The notes beneath the pieces are model-generated. The model made no database searches. It was not told where the DNA came from and was given only the letters and a program-made list of their open reading frames with translations. 64,000 bases of DNA from Amphiscolops sp. MND2022. Its lineage: Eukaryota. The DNA is taken from contig OZ076409.1 in the NCBI GenBank assembly GCA_964187785.1, forward strand, positions 52,950,001 through 53,014,000, read 5' to 3'. The first letter of the stretch is position 1. Each line of letters starts with the position of its first letter. The translations under genes and the position numbers were made by a program. This document shows positions 1,662 to 63,206 of the stretch, piece after piece.

Positions 1662-2221
1662 TGTAAGGACTAATGTCCCTGTTGTCTCTTAGGTCAACTG
1701 CAGACCGTCAATCATTTTTTGCAATTCTAGATTTGAGCCCATTGTTCCCCTCAGTGTTCTCCTGACTATTAGGGGGCGAACTGACCTCAGTGTCTCGATT
1801 TCATGAAGATGACATTGAACTAACTATGTTCTGAATCTCTGGAATTACTCTTTCAGCTATGGCCGTGTTGGTCGCTATATTTATTTGATTATGCATCATA
1901 TACATCATTGAGTCTTTTTCCTGAAAGAGTTTCATGTTGAATTCACTAGTGAGAGTTTCCATTGTTTCTTGAAACCTATCTCGCCTGGGGATCATGTTTT
2001 CATGGACAGAGTGTCCACAGCCATTTTCATGGGAATTATCCTCTCTGGATTGCAAAATCCACTCATCATCACAATGACTTCCTGTATTCCCAATCACATT
2101 TGAAAGTTCTCGTTCAATTGGATTAACATTATTACTTCCGAGTACGACGTCCATGTTTTCAAAATCAGACATCATGTCCATTTCTCTAGTTTCTAGCTTT
2201 CTCTTTTCTAGTGGAAGGCAT
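1662..2221 (-). pseudogene. Frameshifted LTR-embedded ORF (MPSTRK..REMDMMSDFENMDV..RVIPEIQNIV..ISPY), probable Gag N-terminus
   Basis: Translation similar to the ORFs starting at 38692 and 62621; TATA-like tatatata near 2422-2430. Confidence 0.7.
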
Positions 2222-3174
2222 AGGAGACGCATACTAGGGAAGAATTAATTAAAATCCTTTATCTCGTAAATTTAACCTTGTTTCAAATCACACAACTGTA
2301 TCACGTATAATCGGTATTCTTTTGTGTTTCGGACCTTGAGTCCTGAGCATATATATCACATCCGATCACGGAAATGTTTACAAGGCGTTACCTTGTGAGT
2401 CCTTCTAGAACAAGCAACAACATATATATACGAACCAAACAAATCTTTCATGTTAGGTATCAAAAGACTACATGTCCTTCTGTATTTAAAAATGATATTC
2501 GTGTAAGGGTACAAGTTTATTAGCCATAATGTCTGGAGGTGGGAGCAGCTAGAACAGCGACCTTTCTTCGACAGAGTTATAGTAAAGTACTAAACAATCC
2601 TTCAAATAAAAGTTTTATAATGTAAGCGCCGTCCTGTATTCAGATTTGGACTCAATGTCAATTCGCATTTGTTTGCTCATAATTGAATGTGGACAAGCGG
2701 CATATGGCCACTGAGTCCAACTACTGCATTAAATATTCAATGAAATACTGCACTGTGATTGGCTGGTTAAATATTTGGACCGGACGTCCTCGGCAAAAGG
2801 CAAGGGAACGTTTAAACACATTTCCTTTGCCTGTACGCCGTGGTGTCCAATTTCTAACAACATACTGCTGTTTTACATATATAACACGCATAAATGTCAT
2901 AATGAACAACATATTAATTTGATCACTTTCAATTTAGCTGCAAAATAAGTATTTTAACTGCAAGTCCGATTAATATTTTGAGTACAAAGTAATAATACAC
3001 CAACACATGTATGACTCTCATAGCTAAGTATTAAAGTCAAGTTTGTAGTTTTATGACTTTCATACGGCTCGGCCTGTTAGTCTTCCTTCTAATTCAACGG
3101 GACCGACTCAGGGAGAGTGCCATAGTTGTATCCAACTGAATACCAATTGCCATCGCAGACGGCAGCCTGCGACA
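1662..3174 (-). mobile_element. Solo LTR, 1513 bp (copy 1 of the ORF-containing LTR family)
   Basis: Minus-strand ends TGTCGCAGGCTG...CCTTACA; perfect 5-bp TSD CCTCC (1657-1661 and 3175-3179); homologous to 37626-39710 and 61248-63206. Confidence 0.9.
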
Positions 3175-17312: not shown

Positions 17313-17338
17313 TGAAAAGAGTTTGACATAAAAATTAA

Positions 17339-28611: not shown

Positions 28612-29015
28612 TTATGAAAATCATTGTTTCGGTATGTTTGGAAGCGTGACAACAAGCAAGGAACAAAGGCTATGAGGAACTTTGGCTGAATTCTTTTGTT
28701 TCTGTTCAGTACATTTCGTGTTGAACAAAATAAATGGTGGATGAATAAATTTTTCTGCTTGAATAAAATTGAAATATACCAAGAGATGTATTTTGGAGGG
28801 TTATTTAAACATATATGTTTAAATAACCCTCCAAAATACATCTCTTGGTATATTTCAATTTTATTCAAGCAGAAAAATTTATTCATCCACCATTTATTTT
28901 GTTCAACACGAAATGTACTGAACAGAAACAAAAGAATTCAGCCAAAGTTCCTCATAGCCTTTGTTCCTTGCTTGTTGTCACGCTTCCAAACATACCGAAA
29001 CAATGATTTTCATAA
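28612..29015. repeat. Perfect spacerless palindrome, 404 bp, centre catatatg
   Basis: 202-bp arms are exact reverse complements; identical ORFs on both strands. Confidence 0.97.
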
Positions 29016-37625: not shown

Positions 37626-39710
37626 TGTCGCAGGCTAACGCCTGCGATTGTAATTGGTACTCTGTGTCGTACAATTACCATCGGGCGCTGCCTGGGACAA
37701 TTCCGCTGGACTGTTCCCCATTCAAACACTTCTCTGTTATTTTGTTTCTGTTGCTAAATTCTGTTGCTAACTTTATTGTGTTGTTTTACAATGAGATTAA
37801 TTGCTGCTTTTGCTCTTGTATTATTATGGAAATTGGACACCGAGGCGTACAGGCAAAGGAAACGCGTCCAAATGTTTCCTTGCCTGGCGCGGCGGACAAC
37901 AAATCCAAATCAGTATCAACCAATCAGATCTCTCCATTTTAGAATACATTTCAAATATTTGCGCGTGTCCTAATCATACAAAAGCCGAGTACGGCCTAGT
38001 GCTGTGGTATAATAATCAATCATGACAATTAGCCGGCTGCGGTTTTATTCACTGAATTATGAAGCGATGCTACCGTAATATAGTACTCTATTGGAGTGTA
38101 GTGTGAATGTAGCCATTTGCGGCTTGCATAAAAGGAGAGCCAGGACAGGCAATTGAATGTGGCCCTCTTTAGCCTGTTTGAAACAATAATTGTACACGAT
38201 TTTGTTTATACGTGAAAATATTGTTGAAATCTACATTTTGTCCATGAAATTGGTTTTTATATTACGAATATGGCCAAAATGTCCTCCCTCCCGTCACCCT
38301 TTTAACCGTGAAATCGCAAGAACATATTCGGATCAGCTGGGCTCATGTCCTACCATGTTAGTCTGCATGTAAACGGTTTGACACATGTATATAGTTGCTA
38401 CAGTTACAGTTAAGCTGGAACGTCCAGTAGGCCATGTAAATATTTTGTAGCCGCTAGGCTTCGATGATATTTATAGAACCAGATTACGTCATGGAACCAA
38501 CTATCGATTCTATTTTTAGACAATGTGACTCTTTTTTCAGCCCTAAATTTGGGATGTCATTCTTCCTGGGGTATATATAGACCGCCCAGAAGGCTCTGAC
38601 ACAATTTGCTTGACGACTTTTACTAATACAGTCTGAAATACACAATCGTTAAAATTGGAGAAATATAAGATAAATCTCTGGCATTCTTTTAATGCCATCC
38701 ACAAGGAGACAGAAATCAAAACCAAGAAGGTCTAGAGAGATGGACATGATGTCCGACTTCGAAAATGTGGATGTACTGCTTGGATGTGAAAATGCAAATC
38801 CTATTGAATAGGAATTAGCAAATACTATCAATAGTTCAATCAGGAACGATGACACTGAAGCCCTCGCCCAACAAAGAGAGAATTCTTCACAGGAGAATGA
38901 AATTAGGGATTTTAGTTGTGAAAATACCATTCCTAGCATTACGATACATATGCCGCAATGAACTAGCAAGATCTTGCTAGTTCGATTAACAGCCAATGAA
39001 AACGCTATCTTGTTTCAGATACGCGTTACGAGTTTTGCTCGTTACACTGTGTGATTTGGCGTTACGCGTAGTGATCAAAATACAGTAAATGACTACTTTA
39101 CACTCGCTACAATTACGTACTTTGACTGGTTTCCACTTCACACATGAATGGAAGTGTCGTTTGGAGTTATTTTTACTCACTGTGTGTACCAAAATGTGAC
39201 TGGTTTCCACTTTTCTCCAATTACGTACGCTCGATGATCACAATCCCCAATTTCTGATTACACTGTGCATCACAATCCATGATGAACACGGTGCACTGTT
39301 TGACTAGAATACGGTTCGCTCTCGTTTTACGGAAAATACAGTTTACACTTGATGATAAATTCCACTTTTGCGGCATATGTATCGTAATGAGGCAAGTTAG
39401 ACTGCTTGAATCTATGGAAATTTTCTCTAATGAGAGAATTATACGTCTTTCACACGAGATGGACTCCCTGATGTCAGTATTGCACTCCCAGATTAATAGG
39501 GCCATAAGCTCTGCTATTAACGACAGTCATACCTGAAATACAAAACATTAGAGGTTCGCTGTTTTCAAGCCATCGAGACACTTGAGTCCAGGTTGTCCTG
39601 CAATAGTCAGGAGAATAATAACCAAACAAGTTGTTTGATAACGAAAATAACGAAAAAGGACTCTAGGTTTGGCTTTGATCTTAGTGACACTGGGGACCTA
39701 AGCCCTTACA
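37626..39710 (+). mobile_element. Solo LTR (copy 2; ~1630 bp without the nested MITE) with embedded decayed ORF from 38692
   Basis: TGTCGCAGGCT...CCCTTACA; perfect 5-bp TSD GATAA; TATA-like tatatata at 38572; MPSTRRQK..REMDMMSDFENVDV..GDLSPY. Confidence 0.9.
38937..39389. mobile_element. CACTA/CMC-like MITE inserted in the LTR ORF
   Basis: TIR cattacgatacatatgccgcaa; 2-bp TSD ag; removing it restores ..IPRQ.. homology to copy 1. Confidence 0.85.
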
Positions 39711-42514: not shown

Positions 42515-43225
42515 TGTAACGTCCACCAGTCAAGGTCAAAAATTTCAAAAATTCGAAGAATACCCAAAAAGTGTGCGAATCAAAATGGCCAACCTAGCAG
42601 GTCGTTGAAATCGAAAAGGAAGCACACACAACGCAAAAAGACCCCCCCAGACCACAGAGAAGACCGAAAAGCAGCGAAAGAAGATATTCAGAAGCAGAAA
42701 CTAGCCAATACCTCAGTGTTGTGCCATCAAAACCGGAAAATCGCAAGAATGAGCCGGAAAAGAGATGAAGAAGAAGGTGCGATTTTTGCGTGAGTTGAAC
42801 CCAAAGCTCAAAACTCGCTGAGAACTGTTCAGAATGCCTCCCCAGTGCTGTTTTGTAGTATTTTGGCAGATTTTCAGGTGTTTGTTAATGGTAAACCTGG
42901 AAGGTGTTGATTTTAGACGTTATTCACTTAATTGAGATGTGCTCTGACTAAACCCCTGTTTTCAGACCTCGGAGGTATGTAGGATCGCAGGAAGCCTTTA
43001 GGACCGTTTTTACGTGCTTGTGGGACGTGTCCGGACTTTGAGTGTGCCGGCACGTCGCCACGGAGCTCTAATATGAGGAGTCTCCTCGGCGTCTTGGAAA
43101 AGTCCCTACAGAGACCATTTGGGACCAAAAACTAATGTTTAGGTTGTTGTAAGACACTGGTCTCTTGTTAAGGCAACCTGGGCATTGTCCCGGTTCTGGA
43201 ATGTAGCTGTTAGCTTGACGTTACA
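42515..43225 (+). repeat. 5' LTR (711 bp)
   Basis: tgtaacgtc...gacgttaca; two T/C differences from the 3' LTR seen. Confidence 0.97.
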
Positions 43226-43241
43226 TCTAGGATAGTTTTTA

Positions 43242-43259
43242 TGGCGCCCCACAAGGGAC
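43242..43259 (+). promoter_or_regulatory. Primer-binding site, tRNA-Lys(UUU)-like
   Basis: TGGCGCCCCACAAGGGAC matches the tRNA-Lys3 PBS TGGCGCCCGAACAGGGAC at 15/18; lies 16 nt past the LTR end. Confidence 0.7.
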
Positions 43260-46200
43260 ATTTTTTCCATCTTTTCGCCATAATTGGAGTTTTTCCTGCT
43301 TTCCGGCCCTGCTAGGTTCGGATCTAGGAAATTCTTCTGGTGGGTCCTAGATTGTTTTTATTGCCTTATGCTAGCCCTGTGGGCCTTGTACTAGTGTTTT
43401 TCCTGTGTTTCCTGCATGTTTCCGGGGTCTGGAATGAGAAATAACCGTGTGATTACAGAGTACCGTTTCCATACCGTTTCTGATTGTCGAAATTAACCAT
43501 CCGGCTTCACCGGATTGTGTTTTAAAGGGTCTTCTAGCCTTGTTTCAGCTTAATTGCAATGTATGGGGACCAGGAGGACGAGCACTGAAGGCCCCAGCTA
43601 GCTGACGACAGTAGGTGAACCCCTGCGTCATCGCACCTCCGTCACCCCCGTGATTGCAGTATACCCACGACAATCGGGTGAAATTCCTTATTTTCTTAGT
43701 TTAGAAGCCCAAGAAGCATATTCCCAGGCCTATTCCAACTAAAATTAACTGGAAAGAATACCCTGAGGGTGTTTAAACCAGTTGATTGAAAATTTGAGCG
43801 CGAAAACCTGAAAAATAATGTAAAATAAGGCTCAAATAGTGATTTTACAGATTTTGAAAGTCGAAATTTTGTAGAAAAGAGTACGGCCAGTGGGAATACA
43901 TGAAAAACGTTCCATCAGACCTGCCAGGTCAGGAACAGAAAAATTTGCTGGGCTAAATAGTTGAAACATCGAGAAATTTAGCGATTTTTGTCGAAAAAAC
44001 ATCAAATTTGGCCAAAAATACCAAATTTGGTGAGGGCGAAGCATTGGGCGTTAGTTCCCAAGCTTTTAGATCAGCCCAAAAACGTTATTCCCGAGCTTGG
44101 TAGTACAAAACACTACTGCCAAGACGATTTTTAGCATCCCCCAATAAAAATTGAAACTTTAACCCTTGAATTTCTTTGATATGCATAGACCTGAGTGGAG
44201 GACTCCATAGACCTGAGAGTTATAACATCAAAAGTAATAATTGAAACAACCCCATTCCCCTAAATAAAGTTGTTACACCTTCTAACACTACTATTAGAAC
44301 CATTCGGAACGTCTGAGAACAAAGAAATAAAAATTTCTTGTTGAAAATACGTATTTTCAGTACTGTTCCGAGAGTGTCAAAGGTGCAACTTAAAGTTTAT
44401 TTTGAGAGACCTTATTTGGAACCTGCCAGGTTTTGCTGGCCTATTTTCTGTTAGTACAGAGTATAACGTTGCAAACGCAGAAAATCGCGAGTGATTCCAA
44501 CCAGTAGTTGCCGAGAAATAGCCAAAAACGTGTTATTTTTGTGACATTTTCGGAACACTGGAGTAGTGTACCCAAGATAGGTCGAAATCTCTCCTGGTAG
44601 GAGTAGCCCAGAACGGATAGCACCATCGTGTAGAACATAAAAAGTTACGTTAGTGGTGTAATTTTCGTAGCGCTACCATTACTAGTGATCGAGAAATCTC
44701 AGCCGCAGTTTTGCTCAAAAATGATCCGAAAATGTCGAAAAAATTGAATTTTAGTTGAGCATAGTGCAATACCTTGCAGGTATCCCAGCACTAAAATTCT
44801 TGCATTTTCGTACATACGACACTAGATCCCGACGATTTGTGCATTTTGAGCAGCTTGCTACTGGCCAACTTAGAGAAATTGACAATTTTGTGGATTTTAA
44901 CCCCTGAAAGTGACATACAGTGTACATCATAGTTTTGTCGACTCGGATTGCGGAATATTGATCTGGGCACCCCGCTAACTTATTTTTCTGTTACGTGGGC
45001 ATAATTCACGCTCGCATACAAAATTTCAGGTAGCTAGGAAGCCTAGAAGGCGAGTTTGACAGACTTGTGTGAATTTCACAACATTGTAAAATTTTGCAAT
45101 AACATTGTTGAACGACCCCAAGTCACGTGCAATTAATTTTAGCGCAATCGATGGTGATTTTCCCACGATTTGGCCACAGTAGTATACCGTGTTGAATTTT
45201 GAGGTCGCTACTAGCTCTAGAAGTGATTTCCACCTGTTCCAGGCGTGCATATTGGCGAAAAAGTTGCTGATTTTGAGAAATTTTGCGAAAAATTACGTAT
45301 TTTTCGTAGGTATAGTCGCAAGTGAGTGCTCCAACGACCCTAGTTCTACACCAGGCACCCATAGCACGTCTTGTTGAGGCAATCAGTATAGAGCTAGCTC
45401 AACCCTAAGATCTTGGGTTCGTGGAAAGATTGTCAACGAGACGTAGAAGCGAAAAACACCAAAATCGTGTTTTCTCTGTTAACAGCCACCAGAGTCACCT
45501 AAGTGCGAACTGACAGTTGTAGCCACGCATACTTCGAATGCGAAGCATAGTGTAAGAATCAGAACGCATTTAGGAGTTTCCCACGAGACTTAGACTTAGG
45601 ACGCGCTGCGTCTCGCCAAAGTACATTAAGTACAGCAGCATCTGAAAGTGTGAAGAACCGTGTCTCCATTGATCTTGTAATCATCAGATTAGTAAAACTC
45701 TCTTGTTTGTTAGTCTCCTAGCACCTACTCACCCCCAAGGTCTATCCCCGAGTTCCCTATTCGTAGTAACCCTACTTGTGCTCTCCTCATAAAGGGCAGT
45801 GCGAGTAACATAGAGTGCGCTCACAGAATAAAGTGCGGAGATTTCTTGAATAAATCTCCATAAAGCTCTGTTAGCGTGCCAAAACCTTTCTGTTCACTCC
45901 AACCGCATAGCCTGTGGCTGGGTAAAGCGTAGTTTAGTGTGAGTAACCTCTAAAGTACTTCAAAAAAAAATTTTAAAAAAACTCATCTTTAACTTTTCGT
46001 AGGATAACTATCTCCAGTTAGTGGGGTAGCAAACATTTCTGTTCTGATTAGTGGTGATTAGCACCAGTACATGTAATCTGGAGACTGTAGTTTGTAAGCC
46101 AGCTTCATTCGACTTAGAACATAGCAGGCAATTGCGAGCTGCAAGCCCCAGAACGTAGTGGTCCCATAGTTTAATTTGCTTAATAGTGAAGGAGCACGTC

Positions 46201-46261
46201 AAAACTCCCAAATTTTGTTTGCCTTGTATTTGACTTTACACAAAGAAGCAAGAAGTGAGTA

Positions 46262-47011
46262 ATGAGAAAAGCCAAAGCCCTGTTCAAAAGCTGGGTTACC
46301 AGAGGAAACAGTAGTCCGAGCAGTCCATCGAGCATGAACTCAGGCGAGATTGAGTATCTGAAGTCTTTGAATGAGTCGAACAGGCAGTCTAGTAGCTTCC
46401 ATGTTACGAATCCATTTGCAAGCGAGGTAGAGGAGTTGTCTGGGCTTAGTGCACGTGCTGAGATAGCAGCGGATGACATGATTGCAAACATGTTTTTATA
46501 CGACGTCATGTCAAATAACATGTCGAATGCCGAGCAAAACTCGCAAATGGCATACATCAGCCAACTAAACTCCTCTCGAACATCTTCGGATAGCGCTAAT
46601 TTTGTAAATGGCACTGCCATGAACTGTGGTAGCGTCTGGCCTCCCATGAATAACTCTGCGATTGCTTGGGGAGATTGGCCAAACTCGAATGGAGAACAAG
46701 CTACCAGCTCGAACATCAGCAAAAGTGTAGAGGACAAGAATGCAGGCATGGCCTTAGGAGAGATTACACCACAAGTGAGTTTGGGTGTGGACCCGCTGGG
46801 TTCCGGAGTTCCAGTGTTTGCTGCTAGTAGAAACGCTGTTGCTGACACCGCAAGTACTCCTTCAGGAAACCAGCTGGGAAAGCGGGAGACTGCAAAAGAG
46901 GTGAACCAGAACTATACCTTTACCACACCACCTCTGCTAGATCTTAGCACCTTCCGACTAGAATGCACGGCAACTCCCCAAGATTCAGGCTCAGGTAGCG
47001 TTGCATCTTGA
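46262..47011 (+). CDS. N-terminal Ser/Asn-rich part of Gag, separated from the main ORF by one in-frame TGA
   Basis: Same frame as 47063-55606, with no other stop between 47012 and 47062. Confidence 0.7.
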   Translation: MRKAKALFKSWVTRGNSSPSSPSSMNSGEIEYLKSLNESNRQSSSFHVTNPFASEVEELSGLSARAEIAADDMIANMFLYDVMSNNMSNAEQNSQMAYISQLNSSRTSSDSANFVNGTAMNCGSVWPPMNNSAIAWGDWPNSNGEQATSSNISKSVEDKNAGMALGEITPQVSLGVDPLGSGVPVFAASRNAVADTASTPSGNQLGKRETAKEVNQNYTFTTPPLLDLSTFRLECTATPQDSGSGSVAS

Positions 47012-47062
47012 AGTTCTACCATCACTAGAGGCATCAAGGAAACTGAAGCCATAAACGAAGAC

Positions 47063-50000
47063 TTGGGACGGAGCATGGCACAGTTGAAACAAGTCCAGGC
47101 AGAACTATCCCAAGAGAATAGTGACCATGCTCATCGAGCTGAAGTTTTAATGAAAGAAGTGGAGGAACTGAGAAGAGGAGTGCTTGAAATGAAGATGGAA
47201 GGGCACATCAATCAGGGCAAAATGGAAACCTCAATGGCATCAGTCAAGGGTTTAACTGAAAAGCTCATATCGGAAATGACTGCGATAATGGCGCAAAGAG
47301 ATCACCAAGCCGATGAACGACTGACGCTCATTTCCGAAACTATGCATCGCAGAGACATAGATGTCGACAAGCGCATGGTGGACCTCATGACTACAGTTCA
47401 AGAGTTGACCCTAGGGGTAAAAGCTGTAGTGGCGACGGTACCAAGTCGTCCTTCACCTGTGCCGGTGGCACTAAATCCTGCGAACGTGCCATCCACTAAT
47501 GAATCTTCAATTCAGCAACCCACCAATAGAGAAGTAGTTCAGCGCCAGAGCAGAACGAAACCCGATCAAAGAAACTTGAATCCAGAAACAGTAGAAGAGG
47601 CTGCAAAAGGCAATACACCGAACACCATACATGGACAAGCGTTAGCCGAAGCAATAACAGGCGCGATGTCCAAAAGTTTGGAACCATTGCTAGCAGCAAA
47701 AGAAGCCAAAAATATACCAACAAAATACCGCGGTACGCGCGACGGGATAATAGATGGTTGGCTAATGCTCATGAAACGTTATTTGGAGAAAGCACACGCA
47801 AGGGATACTCCACTGGACAGAGCATGGACCATCGTTGAATTCCTAGAGAATGAGGCACAAGACTACATCATGAACAAATCCGAGGCTGAGCGCGACACGG
47901 ATGAAAAAGTCTTTGCGCTACTAGCGCGTCGATTTGGAACCGGATCTAGCAAGTTCCAAAAACAACAGCAGTTCCGTACACGCAATCAGTCCGACAACGA
48001 AGACTATATGCAATATCTTGACGCTCTTGAAGGTTTGCGCAGCCAAGGTTTTCCTAACGAGGACGTTACTGTAAGGCGTTACGAAATCATGCAGAGGTTC
48101 ATTGAAGGGGTACGCAGCTTTGAGTTGAAGCGAAATCTCGCACTCATGTACGCACAAGAACAGTACGTGGATACACCTCCAACAGTGGAAGCACTACGGT
48201 TCACGGTACAACAATACTTGCATATGCGCGGCCCCATCCGCTCTGAGAACTATCCAGCGCCTCAGCAACACCAAGAGCCGTTACTTGCTAGCCACCAAAA
48301 CCCGATACCGGCAGCGGCTCCTCAAGCGCCTAATGGGCAGCTACCTCCACAGCCAGTGGCTGTTCGACAGCAACCACCGAAGCCATCTGGAGCGTGTGTC
48401 AATTGTGGCGACCCGTCACATTTTGTTGCCGATTGCACTTTGAAAGATCGTGCACGCAAACCAGTGCCTCAACTAGTTACTTCATGTCGAACAAACCCAA
48501 CTGGTGAATGGTCTTGTCCTTCTAACTCTCAGGGCATGAATAACGACGTTGTGCCTGTGGCACTACCAGCACAAGCACCTCCCACACTACGCGTCACTTT
48601 TGATTGCACGGGCAACACTGCATCCGAATGCATGGTGCCTGGGAATGCAGCAACAGAAGAACAAGTGAAAGCGGCGTGGTACGCCCCTGTCGCGAATTCC
48701 GCGGACATTATTGATACTGATGATCAAATACGGGTGATCTCAATTTCAGAAGAAGGAGGCCCCTCACGTCCTGTGGTTGTGACTTGCGGTGAAAAACAAA
48801 TCTTGACGACGCTTGAAGCCCCAGCACCTGATTGTACTGAGACTTTAATTTCTATCCACTTGCTATTATCAGCAGAGCAAAAAGCACGTCCAAACCTCAC
48901 GTTGGTACAACTAAAAGAGGAACTTTGCCGCAATACCAGTCTCACGATGGCTTCGAGACCCTTACCGCATTTTACTAGAGATGACGAGACCAAGCTAGCC
49001 CAAATACACAAGGTCAAAACAATCGCGCCAGTCCCCATTGCAATCACGGTTGATGGTGTCGACATGAAATTCGACGCGATTGTTGTCCTGGAAGGACACT
49101 TTCCGCAGGGACTGTACTTGGGCAGGCAAGAACTGCGCTATTATAACATCGGAGTGCAGGATGCACAAGGAGAGGCCCAGATTGATGAGCAAGCCTCGCT
49201 AGTCGTTGCATTCGGAACTACTTTGCAAAAGCCGATACCACTCTTCGGCATGATAGACACCGGTTCGGGAGTCTCCATCCTCTCATTGAGCGCGTACAAG
49301 AAAATTGCACCCCAGCATGAACTGAACCTGTCACCGTACGATCTTGAACTCTTCGCTGCCAATGGCAAGACCATCACCACCGTTGGAATAGCCGAAGACG
49401 TAAGCTTTCAGCTTGGCGGACATACTCTGAAGACCAACTTTGTAGTCATAGCCGATCACATTGGTTCAGAGGATTTTCTCCTGGGTCGGAACTTCTTGCG
49501 CACATACAACGTGTTGGTGGACCTGGCTGCCATGAAAATAACCATCCGTGACCCGGAAACGCCTAGGATCTTCAAAGCAGTTCACGAGGTCAGTGACCAA
49601 GAGCCATCATTCGTTGTTTCTGCCGAGGAGGTTACTTTAGGGCCTTTCGAACAAAAAGTTGTGCGCGCGAAGATCATAACGCAGCAGCCCAACGAGTTTC
49701 ATTTTCGTAACGTAATGGTGCACCCATGTAGCATTAGGTCCAACTCATTGTTTGATTCAGAAGATACACTTACTTCCGTGGGAGAAGACGGTGTAGTTTT
49801 TTTAGCCCTAAGAAACCAAACTGCTAAAGAAGGGGTAAGAATCAAGGAACAAACCGTAGTTGGGAAAGCGGTGCTCACCAATTTTGTGTTCAACTCCGTT
49901 CCCATTCAAGACAGTCGTGAAGCTTCGAAGCTTTCAGCCGAATTTGTGAATCAAGTGCACAGAGACTTAGATTTGGACACGAGTTCAGAGTTTAGTTCCT

Positions 50001-53000
50001 TTGCACAGAACTTTTGGTCTTCAACTGAGCCGTCAGAAATGGGCCTATCGGAAAATGAAAAACGCAAAAGGACAGATCCACTATTGCTGAAGCCGATCCC
50101 AGGCCCCGACCTCTCTTCCGTCCTTTCTTCTTGGGGGGAAGGGGCGAGAGACAAATTAGCGAGCGTTTTGAGTGAATACGATGACCTGTTCATGAAAAAT
50201 AAATCCGACATAGGACGATGCAAAATTGCGAAACATCGCATAGAGCTAGAGCCGGAGGCTATACCACACAGAGAAGGGGCAAGGCGCATGTCTCCCGACA
50301 AAGCAGCCAAAGCAAACCAAGAAGTGCAGAATTTGTTAGCTCTAGGTTTGATTCAACCCTCTTACTCGCCGTGGGCTAGTGGGATTGTCATGGTGAAAAA
50401 GAAATCAGGCGAGCTTCGCTTTTGCTGTGACTTCCGCCCGCTGAACGATGTAACAGTGAAAGACGCGTTCCCACTGCCCAGGATTGATGAAAGTCTTTCA
50501 AGGATCGCGAATGCAAAAATCTTCACGAGCATCGACTTAGCGTGGGCCTTTTGGCAGATTCCACTGAAGAAACGTGACCGCAGAAAGACCGCGTTCGCGT
50601 GCGAGCTTGGACTGTTCGAATGGCGACGAATGCCCTTTGGGCTTTGCAATGCATCGGCCACATTTCAGCGGTCGATCACGAGAGCTCTTCAGAAGATTCA
50701 ACAACGCCATGGAAGTGTTGTCATGGCATACATTGACGACATAGTAATTGCCACCGAAACAATTGAAGATCATTTGGAGAGGATCAGAGAGGTGTTCGAG
50801 TGTCTCAGAGAGGCAGGTTTCAAGATGCGAGCCGAGAAGTGTGATTTCATGCGCACTGAAACCAAATACCTCGGACGGGTAGTATCAGCCGAAGGCATAA
50901 AACCAGACCCGGCAGCTGTTAGCAAAATCCAAGAATGGATGCCCCCGAGAAATAAAGAAGAACTTCAAAGCTTCCTCGGATTTGCGAACTACTACCGGGA
51001 CTTCATTCCTTTTCACGCTGCTAAGGTGCAACCTATGCAGGAGTTGTTAAGGAAGAACCAACACTTCTACTGGAAAGAAAAACATCAAGAAGCGTTTGAC
51101 TCAGTGAAACAGGCATTAGCCGATGCCACAGCTTTGGCAGCGCCAAACGAAGAAGGACGTTTTGTTTTGGACACAGATGCCAGTGCAGTTGCTATAGCCG
51201 GCATACTGCACCAAGAACAACAATACAATGGGAAAACCATTCTTCGTCCCATCGTTTATGGCAGCAAGTCACTGACTCGAACACAAATGAATTATGGCGC
51301 CCCGAAGCTGGAAATGTATGCAGTATTCTATTTTATCGAGAAGTTTCATTCCTACCTTGCAGGTCGGGAATTCACGCTGCGCGTGGACAACCAGGCTCTC
51401 TCGTGGCTGAAGACATATTCAATGGATCAGGCCATGATTGGACGCTGGATTGCGCGCCTCGACCAATATCACTTCAAGACGATCCACAGACCACGCACGC
51501 AACACCGAAATGCAGACGGTCTTAGCAAAAGGACCAATGACTACGTGCATCGGGAGAAGATTGTGGAAGCTCTACCAGAAGTGAGCAAGGGATTCAGCTT
51601 CATGTCCCAGAAAGACTACGAAGAACTCCCCACTGTGCCATATATTGACAAACACGGAAAATTCATCCGAAACCATCCGGAGCTTCCGCCCGAAGCTCGG
51701 GCACAACTCCCTGTGCTGTACATTTTGAAAAAGTCACCAAAGGAGGATCTAACCCCAGATCAGTCTTTGAGCTCCATACCGTGGTATCCACAGGTGCAAT
51801 GGGAAAACACTCCGACATCAACCGAAAACGACAGACCAAATTGTATCCTTAGTGTAACAACCAAAGTGCCAGCGGCACGTCTCGACACCACCAAACGCGA
51901 CCCAGCGTTGCGTAGATTGCCAATGCAGTGCCAAGAACAAGCTGATGTCCTTATGCTAGTTGGGACTGAGCTTCACGAGCATCAGTCGACAATGCGTGGA
52001 TTGAAGGATCTACATCTAGCTCAAAACAGGGATGTTCATCTTCTAGCGCTGAAGAAGCTCATGAAGAACGAGCCATTGGATGACGCTTTGTTCCCCGAGG
52101 ATGTGCAAGACTTTGCCAAACGATACTTTCATCAGAAAAAAGACCTACTGTTCTTGAACCAAAATGACATTTTATGTGTCAATTACATTCCGCAGCAACG
52201 CGCGATGCACGTACGACCGTGTATGATTGTCATGCCCCAGCTCTACCAGCATGAAATCTTGTACAGAGCGCATGATGAATCAGGACACCAAGGCGTTGGC
52301 AAAGTATTGGCGAGGATACAAGAGCGCCACACTTGGCCAGGCATCAAGCGTGATGTCGTCAATCATATTAAGCATTGCTTAACATGCCAACAGACGAAGC
52401 ATCCCGCTGGGAATCCCTGTTACCCCCTACAGAGTATCAACAGCAGCAATTTTAATGACCTGGTGCAATTTGACCATTTGAAATTGTGCAAGACAACGTC
52501 AGGAAATAATGGATTGCTAGTCATCATCGACCATTTTACCAAGTTTGCAGAGGCAATCCCATGTGCACATGATGAATACGACGCCCAGACGACTGCAAAG
52601 ATCATCCTGAATAAATGGTTCGCGAGACATGGCACTCCTGCCAGGATGCAGTCGGACAATGCCACCAATTTCACTGCCGAAATTGCTCAAGAATTGATGA
52701 AAGCTTCGCAAGTGACCAAGGTAACGTCTACTCCAGCTCATCCGAGAGGCAATGGTTTAGTGGAACGCCAGAACCGAACGTTACTCACCTTGCTCCGAGT
52801 CTACACGTCTCGCAGAATGCTTGACTGGGATGAGCACATAGACGGAGTCTTGGGTGCCTACAATTCGACTAGACATGCAACAACCGGATTTTCCCCGTAT
52901 ATGTTCCAACATGGCGCAGAAAAATCCATTCCGCTCTCGTTTATATACCCAGAATTCGCAGCGCGAGAGTTCGAATCAAAAGAAGAATTTGTAGAGCACC

Positions 53001-55606
53001 TACTTGCCAGACAACAAGAAATCCACGAGCTTGTTCGCCGAAACACTCATCAGGCGCAAATACGACAAAAACAGAAGTTTGACAGGCATTTGAAGGCAAA
53101 AGCTCACGCCGTGGGTGATGCCGTTTGGGTTTTTTGCCACATAATCCCCAAGGGCGGTACCCGCAAACTTCTTCGTGCCTGGCGTGGACCTCACAAGGTC
53201 ACGGATGTGTTACAAGATGGAAGATTGTACGTTTTGGATACAGGTCAAAAGGTTCATTTTGAGCGTCTGAAGAAGCATGTGCCAGCGCCATGGGATTGGG
53301 CAGCACATCAACCCTTCGGGTTAGACCAGAATGTAGCCATCGTCGCAGATCCATACGTGGAAGAAAGCAATGAAGAGATAACGTCAGATATAACACGAGA
53401 CTCATTTCTTCCAGAACAACTGCCGGAGGCATCGTTCGAAATGGAACCAACCGCGCCTGTCCCACCGCGCACGATTCAGACACGTACTCAGTCCGCTCTG
53501 GAACGAGGAATCCCACGTAGACGATTCAGTCACTTTGGATATCCGTCTGAGTCGGAATCTGACAGAGAACCAATGGATCAACCCATTGAAGAACCACAGC
53601 AACCAATGGTTCATCCTGATATTGATGACCTAGAACCGCTGTATTCCGATCAAGAGGAAGTCTTACCTGAACCAGCACCAAGCTTGGTACCTTCACCGTC
53701 AGGAACGTCCGCACCATTGCTTTCGAACCCGGCTTTAACCGATACATTGAGTAATTTTCCACTGTTCAGTTCTCGAGCTGGTAGTTCGGTAGGACTAGAA
53801 CTTGCCGAGGAAGCCGAACCCCAAGAAGGAACTGACAGAGAAATTCAAGAACCCGGTCAAAGCATGGAAACGTTACCCTCATCAGGGAGAACTGCAACTA
53901 GAAGAGGCAGACCAAGAGGCAGACCTCCAGGTCGTAGAAGAGGAAGTACCACTTCATCAAGCAGAACACTTACAAGAGCGCACAGACCTTACACGCGAGC
54001 GAGAGGCCGAGTAAGAGCCAGAGCTCAGTCTCACACTTTGGAACGTGCAATGACATTACCCAACATAGCGGAAAGCATATCGCCAGAGCAACGAAAAGCG
54101 GAGCAACCAACCCCTTCACAAGCCCCACCTTATCAGCTACGACGTAACAGAACACCACGATACAGGTGTGGAACCTGTGGTTCCCGCAACTGTAGTTGCG
54201 TCAACCTAGTTGAAGTGAAAACACCGGACAAGCGATTGGCCCGGGGAGTGGACGCTCCTGCTCTTGACTTAGCCGACACCGAAATATTCGAAGACCATAT
54301 ACAACATACGATCAGGTCCATACACGCAAAGGACCAGGATGTTCCACAAGTACATCATGTTGTAATTTCAATAGAAAAGACGTACTCGAGCATTGGACCA
54401 GGTGTGGTCCCACCCCTGGAAACCACACTAAGAGCCATGCAAGGAACACCGCCCTCAGACTGTCCCACCTATCGGTTCAAGGAGTGGACGTGGCACGACA
54501 AGAGCGGATTAGAGTTTACGTTGGCCGCTATTATTCCCCCGCTCCCACCATCGATGGTGTTTGGAAAAATAGAGCCAGAAGACACGAAAGTAGCAATGGT
54601 ACGCTGTATCACCGCGCAAAAGCTATGGCAACAATACGGTGTGACCTCCCCCCCTGGAGATGTGTATCACCCTACGGCTGGTTGGTGGCTATTAGTCACC
54701 TCCTTGGACGAAACATCACCAGTGAACCCAGGAACGCTATTGATTTGTCTAGAGAACTTGCGTACACTTGTAGAGTTCGAGGACACACTTTGTTTTCATC
54801 TAGCAGATATCTATCGCGGGAAATTCCTTAGTCAACATTGGTTACAGCTACTAGCTATCACTTTCTGTCGCCAAGCCAAAATACGCCTGCTGGACAAACA
54901 CACGTATACGTTTGAGAACCCAGTGACCGTGCTAGAAGCACTCTCCGTAGTTCATGATTGGTCTTGCACGAATTTGGGAGACAGGCCTTTGCGCAGAACA
55001 GTGTGGCAAGACCGTAAAGCCATTCTAGATCATCTCAAACCAAGTCAAGATAATCAAAGCACCGTCACGGGAAAACTGTTGACAACGCACCCGAAAGTCA
55101 AGCCGAACTATCTACCATGGATATCTTACGATGAAACCGATATACTGCAAGCACGTGGTACCGTGGTGATATGCTGTCCGGCTGATCTTCTGTCATACTC
55201 AGCAATGGCGCGTTACGTCATCAGGGAATATGGCCAAGAAGAGATTTTCAAACTACGACCAGCCGTAGGAAAAGCCATACACCTCGCCAAATCACCAGAT
55301 GCGCCATGGAATAACGACATGTTTCTACTATTCACAAGAGCCTCCAACAAACATCCCATGTTACATGATGTGCTACATCTGTGCCTGACAGATCTGGTGC
55401 AGAAGCTAGCCCAAGCTCAAATTACCCGAGTTCACCTTCCTATCTATGATCCTGAAAGGTCAATCAACATACTACCAGCTTGGTATTCAATGTTGAGAGA
55501 TCACTTCATTGACTCAGACGTTGACATAGTTCTCCATGACAGGGTGTATGTGTCGATTGCATCAGTCAAAGCACACCCTAGCCACGTAAAGCACAAGCTT
55601 GATTGA
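47063..55606 (+). CDS. Gag-Pol polyprotein: coiled coil, capsid, CCHC knuckle, pseudo-protease, protease, dUTPase-like relic, RT, RNase H, integrase, AT-hooks, tandem macrodomain-like tail
   Basis: CVNCGDPSHFVADC; IDTGS..LLGRNFL; MPFGLCNA..YIDD (50729); DTDAS..E..DNQAL..ADGLSK; HDESGH..CLTC; IIDHFTKF..SDNA..GLVERQN; WRGPHKV. Confidence 0.97.
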   Translation: MGRSMAQLKQVQAELSQENSDHAHRAEVLMKEVEELRRGVLEMKMEGHINQGKMETSMASVKGLTEKLISEMTAIMAQRDHQADERLTLISETMHRRDIDVDKRMVDLMTTVQELTLGVKAVVATVPSRPSPVPVALNPANVPSTNESSIQQPTNREVVQRQSRTKPDQRNLNPETVEEAAKGNTPNTIHGQALAEAITGAMSKSLEPLLAAKEAKNIPTKYRGTRDGIIDGWLMLMKRYLEKAHARDTPLDRAWTIVEFLENEAQDYIMNKSEAERDTDEKVFALLARRFGTGSSKFQKQQQFRTRNQSDNEDYMQYLDALEGLRSQGFPNEDVTVRRYEIMQRFIEGVRSFELKRNLALMYAQEQYVDTPPTVEALRFTVQQYLHMRGPIRSENYPAPQQHQEPLLASHQNPIPAAAPQAPNGQLPPQPVAVRQQPPKPSGACVNCGDPSHFVADCTLKDRARKPVPQLVTSCRTNPTGEWSCPSNSQGMNNDVVPVALPAQAPPTLRVTFDCTGNTASECMVPGNAATEEQVKAAWYAPVANSADIIDTDDQIRVISISEEGGPSRPVVVTCGEKQILTTLEAPAPDCTETLISIHLLLSAEQKARPNLTLVQLKEELCRNTSLTMASRPLPHFTRDDETKLAQIHKVKTIAPVPIAITVDGVDMKFDAIVVLEGHFPQGLYLGRQELRYYNIGVQDAQGEAQIDEQASLVVAFGTTLQKPIPLFGMIDTGSGVSILSLSAYKKIAPQHELNLSPYDLELFAANGKTITTVGIAEDVSFQLGGHTLKTNFVVIADHIGSEDFLLGRNFLRTYNVLVDLAAMKITIRDPETPRIFKAVHEVSDQEPSFVVSAEEVTLGPFEQKVVRAKIITQQPNEFHFRNVMVHPCSIRSNSLFDSEDTLTSVGEDGVVFLALRNQTAKEGVRIKEQTVVGKAVLTNFVFNSVPIQDSREASKLSAEFVNQVHRDLDLDTSSEFSSFAQNFWSSTEPSEMGLSENEKRKRTDPLLLKPIPGPDLSSVLSSWGEGARDKLASVLSEYDDLFMKNKSDIGRCKIAKHRIELEPEAIPHREGARRMSPDKAAKANQEVQNLLALGLIQPSYSPWASGIVMVKKKSGELRFCCDFRPLNDVTVKDAFPLPRIDESLSRIANAKIFTSIDLAWAFWQIPLKKRDRRKTAFACELGLFEWRRMPFGLCNASATFQRSITRALQKIQQRHGSVVMAYIDDIVIATETIEDHLERIREVFECLREAGFKMRAEKCDFMRTETKYLGRVVSAEGIKPDPAAVSKIQEWMPPRNKEELQSFLGFANYYRDFIPFHAAKVQPMQELLRKNQHFYWKEKHQEAFDSVKQALADATALAAPNEEGRFVLDTDASAVAIAGILHQEQQYNGKTILRPIVYGSKSLTRTQMNYGAPKLEMYAVFYFIEKFHSYLAGREFTLRVDNQALSWLKTYSMDQAMIGRWIARLDQYHFKTIHRPRTQHRNADGLSKRTNDYVHREKIVEALPEVSKGFSFMSQKDYEELPTVPYIDKHGKFIRNHPELPPEARAQLPVLYILKKSPKEDLTPDQSLSSIPWYPQVQWENTPTSTENDRPNCILSVTTKVPAARLDTTKRDPALRRLPMQCQEQADVLMLVGTELHEHQSTMRGLKDLHLAQNRDVHLLALKKLMKNEPLDDALFPEDVQDFAKRYFHQKKDLLFLNQNDILCVNYIPQQRAMHVRPCMIVMPQLYQHEILYRAHDESGHQGVGKVLARIQERHTWPGIKRDVVNHIKHCLTCQQTKHPAGNPCYPLQSINSSNFNDLVQFDHLKLCKTTSGNNGLLVIIDHFTKFAEAIPCAHDEYDAQTTAKIILNKWFARHGTPARMQSDNATNFTAEIAQELMKASQVTKVTSTPAHPRGNGLVERQNRTLLTLLRVYTSRRMLDWDEHIDGVLGAYNSTRHATTGFSPYMFQHGAEKSIPLSFIYPEFAAREFESKEEFVEHLLARQQEIHELVRRNTHQAQIRQKQKFDRHLKAKAHAVGDAVWVFCHIIPKGGTRKLLRAWRGPHKVTDVLQDGRLYVLDTGQKVHFERLKKHVPAPWDWAAHQPFGLDQNVAIVADPYVEESNEEITSDITRDSFLPEQLPEASFEMEPTAPVPPRTIQTRTQSALERGIPRRRFSHFGYPSESESDREPMDQPIEEPQQPMVHPDIDDLEPLYSDQEEVLPEPAPSLVPSPSGTSAPLLSNPALTDTLSNFPLFSSRAGSSVGLELAEEAEPQEGTDREIQEPGQSMETLPSSGRTATRRGRPRGRPPGRRRGSTTSSSRTLTRAHRPYTRARGRVRARAQSHTLERAMTLPNIAESISPEQRKAEQPTPSQAPPYQLRRNRTPRYRCGTCGSRNCSCVNLVEVKTPDKRLARGVDAPALDLADTEIFEDHIQHTIRSIHAKDQDVPQVHHVVISIEKTYSSIGPGVVPPLETTLRAMQGTPPSDCPTYRFKEWTWHDKSGLEFTLAAIIPPLPPSMVFGKIEPEDTKVAMVRCITAQKLWQQYGVTSPPGDVYHPTAGWWLLVTSLDETSPVNPGTLLICLENLRTLVEFEDTLCFHLADIYRGKFLSQHWLQLLAITFCRQAKIRLLDKHTYTFENPVTVLEALSVVHDWSCTNLGDRPLRRTVWQDRKAILDHLKPSQDNQSTVTGKLLTTHPKVKPNYLPWISYDETDILQARGTVVICCPADLLSYSAMARYVIREYGQEEIFKLRPAVGKAIHLAKSPDAPWNNDMFLLFTRASNKHPMLHDVLHLCLTDLVQKLAQAQITRVHLPIYDPERSINILPAWYSMLRDHFIDSDVDIVLHDRVYVSIASVKAHPSHVKHKLD

Positions 55607-56840
55607 AAGCCTGTAGCACTCAGAAATAGCCATTCGAAAGGCCACTTGCCTTCTTTTAAACTTATGTGTCGTTTTAACTAATTGGCGAACTGGTTCTTAA
55701 TACGGATTGTTTTACTATCTGTCTCGTCTGTGTCTGATCATATTCTATTTCGCTCCAATTCAAAAAAGGTCTTAATCTACAACTGCTGCTTGTTTTACAG
55801 TTGTGTCCTATTTCGCTGAACCTGCGCGGTATCAGATCATAAATCCCAGTTACATCCCCGCAACTTCCTCAGATTATACCCTAGGTGCTACACACCAACG
55901 CAGTATGCTATCATTTCTTGTTTGTACACAGTGCATTAATCTTTCACTTGGATGAGAGAGCGGTCCGAGCAATGTGGATTCAACTGACAGCGACAAGAAA
56001 TCAACATAATTGTCCGGAGATCACCGTCGACCAACTGCTGTTATCAACTATGGAATGGTGAGACCGTACATGATAAGAGACGAATATGTGATCAATTTCA
56101 AACCACCAGCCTCCAAACATTTGACTCAGCCTGTGATTTGTGCGAAGCACCCCATACGGAACCGGTTCCAGATACAATCACGTATTTGTCGTCTGAATAG
56201 TGTTATACATTCAAGCCACATGGTTTTTGACTTCAGAAATGCTTGTTCTGCCAGACTTTTATACACTTGAATGGACGATGAGTGAACTCTTGGAACTCAA
56301 GTTGAGCACAGTGCCTGAAATGGATCCCAAACAAACATGAGAACACAATGGACTGAATGGACTCTCACGTGGTGATTTTCTTTGGCGTGTTACATGTTGT
56401 GTTTCTATATTGGAGCTATTTATTTGGCATCGCACCCGATTCAAGTGCTCTTGTGCATTCTGTAATACCCTACCTGGTAGGTGGGTCCTAACTTGGTGCC
56501 TCCCTGCCCAAAAACAAAAAAAATTTGCAATTGAAATTCCTGCAACTATGCTTTCTTGCAATTCTTGGAATGCCGCGTACATTACCACCCTTAAAAGAAG
56601 TTTTAACTAGATTGAAACGAGTGGAAAGAGTTTTCTTTTAGAGAAAATGTTTTTCATCCTCTAGAATGTTGAAAAAGTGCTAAATTCAAAAGATGAAAAA
56701 GTGCTAATGTCAAAAAAAAGTGCTGTAAAAATGATGCAGAAATTTGGAGCAGTAAAACAAAAAATGAAATAATGTTGCTAAAAGACCCGCTGGGTATGTA
56801 TCATTCTCTCTCGTTTGCCGAGGACAACAAACTACGGCCC

Positions 56841-56848
56841 GGGGAGGA
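56841..56848 (+). promoter_or_regulatory. Polypurine tract
   Basis: ggggagga directly before the 3' LTR. Confidence 0.8.
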
Positions 56849-57559
56849 TGTAACGTCCACCAGTCAAGGTCAAAAATTTCAAAAATTCGAAGAATACCCA
56901 AAAAGTGTGCGAATCAAAATGGCCAACCTAGCAGGTCGTTGAAATCGAAAAGGAAGCACACACAACGCAAAAAGACCCCCCCAGACCACAGAGAAGACCG
57001 AAAAGCAGCGAAAGAAGATATTCAGAAGCAGAAACTAGCCAATACCCCAGTGTTGTGCCATCAAAACCGGAAAATCGCAAGAATGAGCCGGAAAAGAGAT
57101 GAAGAAGAAGGCGCGATTTTTGCGTGAGTTGAACCCAAAGCTCAAAACTCGCTGAGAACTGTTCAGAATGCCTCCCCAGTGCTGTTTTGTAGTATTTTGG
57201 CAGATTTTCAGGTGTTTGTTAATGGTAAACCTGGAAGGTGTTGATTTTAGACGTTATTCACTTAATTGAGATGTGCTCTGACTAAACCCCTGTTTTCAGA
57301 CCTCGGAGGTATGTAGGATCGCAGGAAGCCTTTAGGACCGTTTTTACGTGCTTGTGGGACGTGTCCGGACTTTGAGTGTGCCGGCACGTCGCCACGGAGC
57401 TCTAATATGAGGAGTCTCCTCGGCGTCTTGGAAAAGTCCCTACAGAGACCATTTGGGACCAAAAACTAATGTTTAGGTTGTTGTAAGACACTGGTCTCTT
57501 GTTAAGGCAACCTGGGCATTGTCCCGGTTCTGGAATGTAGCTGTTAGCTTGACGTTACA
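56849..57559 (+). repeat. 3' LTR (711 bp)
   Basis: Near-identical to 42515-43225. Confidence 0.97.
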
Positions 57560-61247: not shown

Positions 61248-63206
61248 TGCCGCAGGCTGCCGCCTGTGACGGTACTAAAATCACGACGACAGCAGGAGGG
61301 CAGGAAATAGCGACTGGTACCCTACCAATCTATTAGAGAGGTAAACATTCAAAACTCAAACTTTTATGTTATTCTGTTAGGTTTATAAGTTGAATGTGTT
61401 AATGTTGCTAATTTCGCATTTAATATATACTTTCGCCAGTATTAGTCTGTTAAGGCCAACAATCAAAAAGCTCAGATGATCCGATGATGTTTGTGAGATT
61501 CAGAAGTGCAATACAATAAGGTAATTGAAGCAATTAGAAACACGGCTAGATAGCATAAAGGAAATGAGTTCAAGTGAACGAAACTCCAATTCCGGGGACG
61601 TCACTTGAGCTCATCTCGCTAGCCAATCGCATTCATTCATTCCTGCAGTGCTATTGCTGTATTTATTAATTGGCCGATTAAGGCCGCATGACGGAACTCC
61701 GCTTTCATTACTCGGTGCTTTGGTCAAACGGCCGGTTCCGGCCGCAAAGCAATATTGGAAGATGTATAGCTAAATATCTTTGTACTTTGTTAATGATAGT
61801 ATAGTTGTGCTTTTATACTGGTTAAACGCTCTTTTTAGTAATTTGGCGCTTTGTTCTAATATTTGGCTGAATAAGGCCATTTGCCTGATCATTATCTCTT
61901 GTTGCTAGAGCCAACCGGAAAGTGGCCGGTTAAGGCTTCTTTTCAAATCAATTATTCGGATGCTATATCTAACCAATTCGCGTACTCTAAATGTCATGTA
62001 TGGTTGTGATTGCGATGTAAACACTCATGTAACTCCCTAAATTAATTAGTGCAATCAATATTAGACTATGTTGTTGCTACAAACACCGGTCTGGAAGACC
62101 TATCCGGCTATGCCCACCAGTTAACATGTACAATCTGTGGCCATATCAGATAAAGATTAACATATGCAATAACATGTAATACTGTTGCTTACTAGCCAAT
62201 TCTGTCTGTTAACGGGGCACGTGCCGACACAGGATTGTTAGCATTCCCCGAATATTAGCGGCTTGAGTAATTTATTTGATGTTATTTGATGCACTGCGTG
62301 CCTTTCAAATGTTTACTAGTGTTGTCGAAACAAAAATTTGAATGGCCGCGTGGTTTTCCTGATAACATTTCAGCGGCACTTTGATGTTCATATAGCTGTG
62401 TAAATCAGGTGCCTCCGGAATGTAGTCATCACATTTTTTAAGTATTTGTACTATGTATGTCACGCCCGAGGCAGTATATATAGGAGCTACTCCCTTGGGT
62501 AGACACAATTTTGTTCTGCTCCTTAAAATCAGTTTGTAAAATAACCTTCTGTTACAAACCTCCAAACAAGATACTATTTCCTGGTGTTAAATAATTTATT
62601 ATTTGACCAGGTTTATCTCAATGCCTACAACTAGAAAACAGAAGAAAGCGAGAAAGTCAAGAGGACTTGAAATGTTGTCAGATATCGAGAATTTAGATAT
62701 TATGTAAGGTGAGAATCACTTCAATGCAAGGGAGAGAGAAAGTAGTTTAAATAGCAATTTGCCCAGGAGATCCAGAAGCTTTGCGAGCAATGAATCCGAA
62801 AATGAAGATGGGGACATAGGTAGAAATCAGAGAAATGTTAACTCTAGAACAAATGCCGAATGTGACCGAAATTCAGTTACAGGCAACTCTAGTGCTGAGA
62901 TGAACAGGTTGTCAAGTGAATTAAATTCTCGTATTTCACGAGAAATGGACGAGATGATGAATTCTGGGAGTGTCCAGATACAAAGGGCCATAAGTGATGC
63001 GATAAGTACGCAGGTGCTTCCACAAATCCAAAATGTAATTATGGCCGGATTAAGACACGGGACCAGAAAGGGATGGGACGTTCCGTCTGAGAGACCGGAA
63101 CTAAATTCCGAAGTTCAGCGAAATCTAAACGCAAAGAACAACTTGAGAAATGAACAGGATGAGAACCAGTTAAACAATGATTACCCTGATCTGAATGTTC
63201 ATGACA
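61248..63206 (+). mobile_element. Solo LTR (copy 3), 1959 bp
   Basis: TGCCGCAGGCTG...CATGACA; perfect 5-bp TSD GTTGA; TATA-like tatatata at 62475. Confidence 0.9.

Follow-up and report, generated by a model that had tools for sequence, protein, structure and literature searches.

The 64-kb stretch of DNA analyzed here (the window) contains three solitary long terminal repeats (LTRs), and these are real solo LTRs of a family of ~16-kb Ty3/gypsy-order retrotransposons. LTRs are usually treated as non-coding regulatory repeats. In this family, however, gag very probably starts 586 nt inside the LTR, reads through the primer-binding site (PBS) and is selected by way of the 5' LTR.

Three solo LTRs carry broken remnants of the start of gag

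61248..63206, plus strand: solo LTR copy 3; subfamily A, 1959 bp, target site duplication (TSD) GTTGA
37626..39710, plus strand: solo LTR copy 2; older subfamily, TSD GATAA
1662..3174, minus strand: solo LTR copy 1; older subfamily, TSD GGAGG
62475..62481, plus strand: TATA-like box of copy 3, 146 nt 5' of the Gag ATG; putative function
38572..38578, plus strand: TATA-like box of copy 2, 120 nt 5' of the ATG at 38692
2349..2355, minus strand: TATA-like box of copy 1, 134 nt 5' of the ATG at 2221
2424-2430, minus strand: second TATA-like box of copy 1, 209 nt 5' of the ATG
62621..63206, plus strand: Gag codons 1-195 and base 1 of the junction codon, copy 3; stop at 62705-62707
38692..39710, plus strand: Gag N-terminal remnant, copy 2; first stop at 38809-38811, more stops and frameshifts, insertion inside
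1662..2221, minus strand: Gag N-terminal remnant, copy 1; early frameshift, first stop at 2186-2188
38937..39389, no strand: MITE-like insertion in copy 2; 453 bp, 22-bp perfect inverted ends, lacking from relatives
61248..61336, plus strand: accessory-frame tail in copy 3; sense, last 28 codons and stop
62888..63049, plus strand: helix codons 90-143, copy 3; prediction made with the corresponding part of an unbroken relative

All three units start with TG(T/C)CGCAGGCT, end in ACA and are bounded by perfect 5-bp TSDs, each different, which confirms the solo LTRs claimed at these positions in the original prediction. It had also placed a TATA-like box 120-210 bp upstream of an ORF; TATATAT indeed lies 120-146 nt 5' of the homologous ATG in every copy (at 134 nt in copy 1, with the second box at 209, and at 120 and 146 nt in copies 2 and 3). 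The ORF itself had been described as homologous among the copies and extending to the last LTR base. The homology does reach the final base, which is codon position 1 in copies 1 and 3, but none of the three frames is open: copies 1, 2 and 3 reach their first stop after 11, 39 and 28 codons, respectively, and the end-anchored frame of the copy 1 remnant has further stops at 1803 and 1710. Copy 2 owes its extra length to the 453-bp insertion.

At the DNA level the window copies belong to different subfamilies and have only short patches in common. Is copy 3, whose protein similarity was said to persist despite highly diverged DNA, simply a degraded outlier? The homology is real, but the copy is not degraded: it belongs to a separate subfamily with relatives of up to 96% identity, which rules that idea out. 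The common start of the three units is conserved because the last 28 codons of an accessory frame, described below, lie there.

The window has other repeats and genes. A different gypsy element occupies 42515-57559, with ~711-bp LTRs that are 99.7% identical, a single 2843-aa gag-pol frame (47075-55606) starting 3.85 kb after the LTR, and an upstream 249-codon frame (46262-47011) with no Pfam match; it lacks both a TGG primer site immediately after the LTR and a clear TSD. Short direct repeats (60-200 bp) occur in pairs at 8323-12459 (minus), 13696-17708 and 18537-22663 (plus), the first and last of which enclose decayed gypsy gag-pol frames. An intronless gene for a 329-aa mitochondrial carrier (PF00153, three repeats) lies at 30791-31780 on the plus strand, near-perfect palindromes of 296 and 414 bp at 25413-25708 and 28607-29020, and an 807-bp tandem duplication, 99.8% identical, at 15701-17312.

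The LTRs flank gag and pol in full-length elements

The original prediction had called for a genome-wide search for paired copies. The last 647 bp of copy 3 were used to query the 1.07-Gb assembly, giving 40 scored matches at 89-100% identity (among 3,592 candidates), many of them paired 10-16 kb apart, mostly ~14.4 kb. A gag-pol region lay between the LTRs in 9/9 fetched pairs, and in seven of these copy 3 was 92-95% identical to its relatives over the whole LTR. Relatives of copies 1 and 2 also form paired LTRs around gag. Two younger subfamilies were reached via protein matches. In these young elements the LTR pairs are 99.6-99.98% identical, the 570-aa Gag frame is intact in 8/8, and pol is a single frame of 1735-1738 aa in 5/8. 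The copy-1 family is older: 24 of its 30 copies are broken, and among 150 scored matches there was no intact member and no open frame >346 aa.

Paired direct LTRs with TG...CA ends and 5-bp TSDs were seen around the internal region. The whole element is ~16.1 kb long, with a 5' LTR of 1.5-2.0 kb followed by gag, pol, three antisense frames, a ~1-kb gap, a sense frame and the 3' LTR. The family has at least hundreds of copies, young members among them. Separate protein searches returned 272, 3,173 and 1,313 matches, all without names or taxa; the best 150 of the 1,313 profile matches were mostly fragments of 70-260 aa. An ESM Atlas match for Gag 1-195 (0.75) is a lead only. We also observed a tandem LTR-internal-LTR-internal-LTR array (L157-L160, G000:C5:67760700-67793000) with halves 99.98% identical, the middle LTR of which is both the 3' end of one unit and the gag start of the next.

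The Gag frame crosses the end of the LTR and the primer site

In the 5' LTR the Gag ATG lies 586 nt (195 codons plus one base) from the LTR end, and Gag is 570 aa long. Directly behind the LTR we found TGGTGACAGGAG in eight of nine pairs, the other one having a substitution. This PBS is a 12-nt complement of a tRNA 3' end, CCA included, and adjoins the LTR end. The frame crosses the LTR/PBS junction in 9/9 pairs and is complete, at 570-577 aa from the LTR ATG, in 3/9. With a slash at the LTR end, the junction reads ...LNVHD/MVTGDNE..., in which A/TG is in frame and encodes Met196. The earlier inferences that Gag starts ~600 bp inside the LTR, that an in-frame ATG is created by the terminal A and an abutting TGG, and that the ORF continues through the PBS into gag were all borne out, the last in the eight intact young elements as well as in the nine pairs.

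A search with Gag 1-330 gave 121 scored matches, every one of them spanning the junction in one frame, a count that is a lower bound and ascertained by the query (121 of 23,828 candidates were scored). Relatives of copies 1 and 2 have the same primer site and phase, with 568 nt (189 codons plus one base) inside the LTR and a junction reading ...SPY/MVTGA.... The tRNA 3' end that matches the PBS had 980 genome-wide matches versus 0 for a control, and tRNA-Leu(CAG) was called at one of four loci checked. The junction would double as the integrase end CA, a 12-nt tRNA-Leu primer site and Gag codons (...His-Asp/Met-Val-Thr-Gly). Separately, tRNA-like 3' ends matching the primer-site complement form a large tandem array at G000:C8:35.59-35.64 Mb, with a spacing of ~230-300 bp.

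LTR-encoded Gag codons are selected in replicating lineages and decay neutrally after insertion

The original prediction had also proposed dN/dS among copies as a check. We took 39 copies from a DNA-ranked list and excluded three that lie on small unplaced contigs and may be haplotype duplicates, leaving 36. Variants common to several elements were read as having arisen in replicating lineages and private variants as post-insertion changes. Across the 195 LTR codons, variants common to three or more elements comprised 16 nonsynonymous and 58 synonymous changes (omega 0.09, p 7e-23), with 54 of the 74 at third codon positions; the other two frames gave omega 1.6-1.9, without a comparable deficit. 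Private variants in the same 36 copies gave omega 0.97 (159 nonsynonymous, 12 stop, 55 synonymous). By class, private omega was 0.82 in 11 solos (52 nonsynonymous, 3 stop, 21 synonymous; p 0.42 versus neutral), 1.32 in 13 3' LTRs and 1.10 in nine 5' LTRs, all consistent with neutrality. Selection among the shared variants is purifying, and the contrast between constrained shared and neutral private variants therefore indicates that the codons are translated, that the element needs them to replicate and that solos do not maintain them.

The copy-1 family gave omega 0.14 for variants common to four or more copies and 1.18 for private ones, in a sample of 30 copies ascertained by protein and hence biased towards conservation. 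Between subfamilies, pN in the LTR-coded part was 0.23-0.28 versus a pS of 0.66-0.75. This part is 54-63% identical between subfamilies, against 94-98% for the capsid-like region, and its conservation is concentrated in two blocks (residues 1-31 at 84-90%, 88-140 at 72-85%) with linkers variable in sequence and fixed in length.

Might Gag begin at the junction ATG, Met196, with the LTR frame a vestige or an independent frame upstream? Nearly all 5' LTRs seen do have an in-frame ATG at their junction, and some gene-caller proteins have 375 aa, the length expected from Met196. However, CA/TGG holds an ATG wherever a PBS adjoins the LTR end and hence is no evidence of a start, and the diverged relative P0371 has Leu at this position. 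Moreover, unbroken copies have no stop from Met1 to Met196, and codons 1-195 are under purifying selection and constant in length across subfamilies 54-63% identical. A Gag that begins at the junction is thus very improbable, and we reject Met196 as the sole start; it may be a second, leaky start beside Met1.

The LTR encodes a predicted oligomerization domain

Reading Gag from Met1, an AlphaFold2 model (84-row alignment) had low confidence at residues 1-89, a single helix at 90-143 (pLDDT 91-98), low confidence to ~285 and a lower-confidence helical region at 286-438. Pfam matched DUF1759 at 280-358 (E 9e-6, above the cut-off) and zf-CCHC at 468-482 (just under the cut-off). The capsid-like region (from ~280) and the CCHC knuckle are outside the LTR, which ends at codon 195. 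"Capsid-like" refers to the DUF1759 match and the position: Foldseek with the Gag model had no match reaching E 0.001, and the capsid C-terminal domain (CTD) of Rous sarcoma virus came only at E 4.6; a wide fold search gave generic coiled coils at Z ~6 and no clear capsid match.

Modeled in three copies, the only stoichiometry used, residues 80-145 formed a parallel coiled coil with a score of 0.79 versus 0.04 for the best control, at least 83% of contacts common to runs and a pLDDT of 84. The score mark was reached by 21/30 solved homodimers and 0/23 single chains from microbes and by 17/29 and 0/30 from eukaryotes, a calibration that used two copies. The helix resembles many solved long amphipathic coiled coils in shape; by sequence, no solved relative of the LTR-coded part was found (a single match, at E 0.26, in one search and none in another). 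Modeling thus predicts that the LTR-coded 54-residue helix forms a parallel homo-trimeric coiled coil, which would likely oligomerize Gag ahead of capsid assembly. The LTR-coded third of Gag, then, consists of a basic head, a linker, the predicted trimeric coiled coil and another linker.

Pol is of gypsy type and is followed by accessory frames

The pol frame overlaps gag by ~10 nt in the -1 frame, and A AAA AAC precedes the gag stop; Pol is likely to be made by a -1 frameshift at this site. Pfam domains follow the order PR-RT-RH-IN (PF13975 at 227-315, PF00078 at 626-791, PF17917 at 883-986, PF17921/PF00665 at 1179-1350). In a ranking of solved matches pol came closest to Ty3 Gag-Pol (E 1e-46), with foamy and caulimovirus RTs behind. 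DUF1759 is common in BEL/Pao elements. Membership of that group was rejected, as PF05380 was absent at E up to 1 and the gypsy-type PF17917, PF17919 and PF17921 were present instead.

A polypurine tract adjoining the 3' LTR is typical of LTR elements, though not gypsy-defining. None was present there in the elements seen, including young ones with LTRs 99.9% identical. The bases 5' of the 3' LTR are pyrimidine-rich coding sequence ending in CAG or CTG (e.g. L146:~5000-5035), and the nearest purine run of 12 or more is ~130 nt upstream in subfamily B and ~1.5 kb upstream in subfamily C. We count the missing tract against the reading of the element given here, as it leaves plus-strand priming without a purine tract at the usual place.

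The sense accessory frame begins ~700-800 nt before the 3' LTR and extends 28 codons into it (e.g. L146:4204-5124). It encodes ~260 aa from its ATG, is 64% identical between subfamilies and gives a weak hint of a Spin-doc zinc finger (E 0.05). It is oriented away from a cluster of three antisense frames of 400, 181 and 675 codons that lies between pol and the 3' LTR (L145-L146, G000:C8:59352300-59370000, element ~9057-13287), and the ~1-kb gap between the divergent frames may be an internal promoter. The antisense frames are 46-59% identical between subfamilies (pN 0.31-0.38 versus pS 0.75-0.84). The longest has a C2H2 motif and a weak Atlas tie to BED zinc fingers (0.85, a lead only); the 400-aa frame had no match in Pfam or PDB profiles and a predicted structure with pLDDT 31. 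Perhaps the antisense frames are exons of one transposase-derived gene. No env-like membrane segment was found in the accessory frames, the highest 19-residue hydropathy being 1.7 or less.

Promoter turnover and a proposed mechanism

A TATA-like box was present at -120 to -147 from the Gag ATG in 7/7 LTRs examined, four of which have an upstream ATG between the box and the Gag start. The positions of AATAAA/ATTAAA poly(A) signals were not conserved across the seven. Between subfamilies, LTR alignment is limited to ~88 nt at the start, ~586 nt at the end and one 24-nt motif. At least four unrelated promoter/leader types precede A-type gag codons (L015-L048, L074-L088). All have the TATA-like box at a similar distance, and where they join gag, similarity begins -46 to -1 from the ATG. 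The pattern would fit modular promoter swapping by template switching near the gag start.

We propose the following mechanism, in which promoter use, the U3/R/U5 borders and a start at Met1, not Met196, are all inferred. Transcription would start just 3' of the TATA-like box, ~100 nt 5' of the ATG, and translation of the transcript would yield a Gag of 570 aa, its first third encoded by the LTR. Since these Gag codons would lie 3' of the start, in R-U5, they would be copied from the 5' end of the RNA into both LTRs in each cycle. Each cycle would duplicate the first third of gag in the 3' LTR and leave a copy in every solo. Selection would act via the 5' LTR of replicating elements, the 3' and solo copies being by-products that decay neutrally.

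LTR copies of gag as possible cassettes, brakes or host genes

Are these by-products nonetheless functional? The original prediction held every solo or 3' LTR to be a ready-made expression cassette. In the youngest subfamily (30 loci fetched of 40 matches, no solos among them), 15/15 3' LTRs retain the TATA and the ATG, with the frame open for 197-224 aa, but the window copies are broken, and the cassette idea would hold for young copies only. In subfamily A the frame is open in 5/12 solos, 6/14 3' LTRs and 6/10 5' LTRs; open solos are not in excess (p 0.67 versus 5' LTRs, p 1.0 versus 3' LTRs). Read-through tails into the flanks of young 3' LTRs are 2-29 codons long, and fusions with flanking DNA would, barring splicing, be short tails, not new proteins.

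One way in which such cassettes could matter is as a brake on copy number. The 3' and fresh solo LTRs would make a ~200-aa capsid-less Gag piece whose coiled coil poisons Gag assembly, an effect that would grow with copy number and arise from LTR architecture alone. The open cassettes of the young 3' LTRs and the predicted homo-trimerization of the helix are consistent with this. So is a precedent, truncated LINE-1 ORF1p, as cited in PMC10951436: it retains the N-terminal domain and coiled coil, trimerizes with the full-length protein and inhibits mobility. Given expression of the cassette, a dominant-negative role is therefore plausible. Selection for such a role would go unseen in 3' LTRs, since selection in the 5' LTR already covers these codons. 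However, the piece lacks the capsid region, whereas Ty1 p22 and DRT2 restrict through the capsid CTD, by the portions of PMC10951436, PMC4551931 and PMC13709905 that treat these Gag-derived factors. The family has also amplified, with hundreds of copies at least, and is still young, and a poly(A) site inside the frame would leave a 3'-LTR or solo transcript without the whole piece. The trimer, moreover, is modeled in three copies against a two-copy calibration, and long amphipathic helices resemble many coiled coils. We regard a brake as unlikely.

Have some solo LTRs instead been domesticated as host genes, as restriction factors or fusions, the window ones included? The five open subfamily-A solos keep frames of 201-232 aa, and in so large a family a rare domesticated locus could fall outside the sample. 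However, the private changes in the 11 solos are indistinguishable from neutral, solos are open no more often than 5' or 3' LTRs, and read-through adds 2-29 codons in young 3' LTRs. For the window copies domestication is ruled out, their frames being broken early. The suggestion that the LTRs are a source of restriction factors or new genes is therefore unsupported, and for solos elsewhere in the family we consider domestication highly unlikely. On their sequence, the three window copies can neither brake transposition nor act as domesticated genes.

Discussion

The analysis supports solo LTRs of a gypsy-order element whose gag starts well inside the LTR. Accessory genes in or overlapping an LTR are known from MMTV (sag) and HIV (nef), where they lie in U3. 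As with nef, the sense accessory frame here runs 28 codons into the 3' LTR; unlike sag and nef, it is the main structural gene that starts here, in the downstream part of the LTR. In Ty1, the GAG start lies within the 5' LTR, ~13 codons before the LTR end, which the frame crosses. Here, in contrast, 189-195 codons, a third of Gag with the whole predicted oligomerization domain, are in the LTR. Ty1 is also a Ty1/copia element with a +1 frameshift, whereas the present family has gypsy order, a predicted -1 frameshift and accessory frames. PMC7055915 describes abundant solo LTRs and tandem elements with a common LTR in Ty1, and these features, like a Gag start inside the LTR, are seen here too.

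Truncated Gag-derived restriction factors, Ty1 p22/p18 and DRT2, are reported in PMC4551931, PMC10951436 and PMC13709905. As with p22 and DRT2, a truncated Gag piece could come from element-derived DNA in this family. Unlike them, with their capsid CTD and internal start, it would be the capsid-less N-terminal third; no selection was found at solo loci, and the window frames are broken. Truncated ORF1p is the closest mechanistic model for a brake, being a trimerizing N-terminal piece that joins the full-length protein, but LINE-1 is a non-LTR element, and the trimer here is a prediction.

The region between pol and the 3' LTR also has counterparts. Plant Retand, a Ty3/gypsy element, has a long region of this kind with conserved antisense frames, according to the abstract of PMC11963269; here the region is ~6.2 kb, with three antisense frames. 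Unlike Retand, it gave no match to TRP28, and the Retand abstract is silent on Gag starting in the LTR. The Tor elements of Oikopleura, a marine invertebrate, are divergent and gypsy-like, with an extra gene expressed from an internal promoter according to PMC4402516. The present element is likewise divergent and gypsy-like, and its ~1-kb gap may be such a promoter, but its accessory frames lack an env-like membrane segment. In the openly licensed literature, repeat databases aside, we found no publication on a Gag-LTR overlap of such size, and the words "overlap", "antisense" and "PPT" are absent from the main text of PMC13524379. A Gag start in the LTR was known before; a third of Gag in the LTR is apparently new, as far as openly licensed literature goes.

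Of a 1.8-kb LTR, some 38% encodes protein under selection, namely 88 nt at the start and 586 nt at the end. Little besides these coding ends can be aligned between subfamilies, as the promoter part turns over. Annotation that seeks gag only between LTRs would miss a third of Gag, and in gene models solo LTRs yield many spurious short ones. The same codons also give a clean contrast between selection during replication and neutral decay after insertion. If 3' or solo LTRs are expressed, this still-amplifying family would allow a test of whether an N-terminal Gag piece, not capsid, can control copy number.
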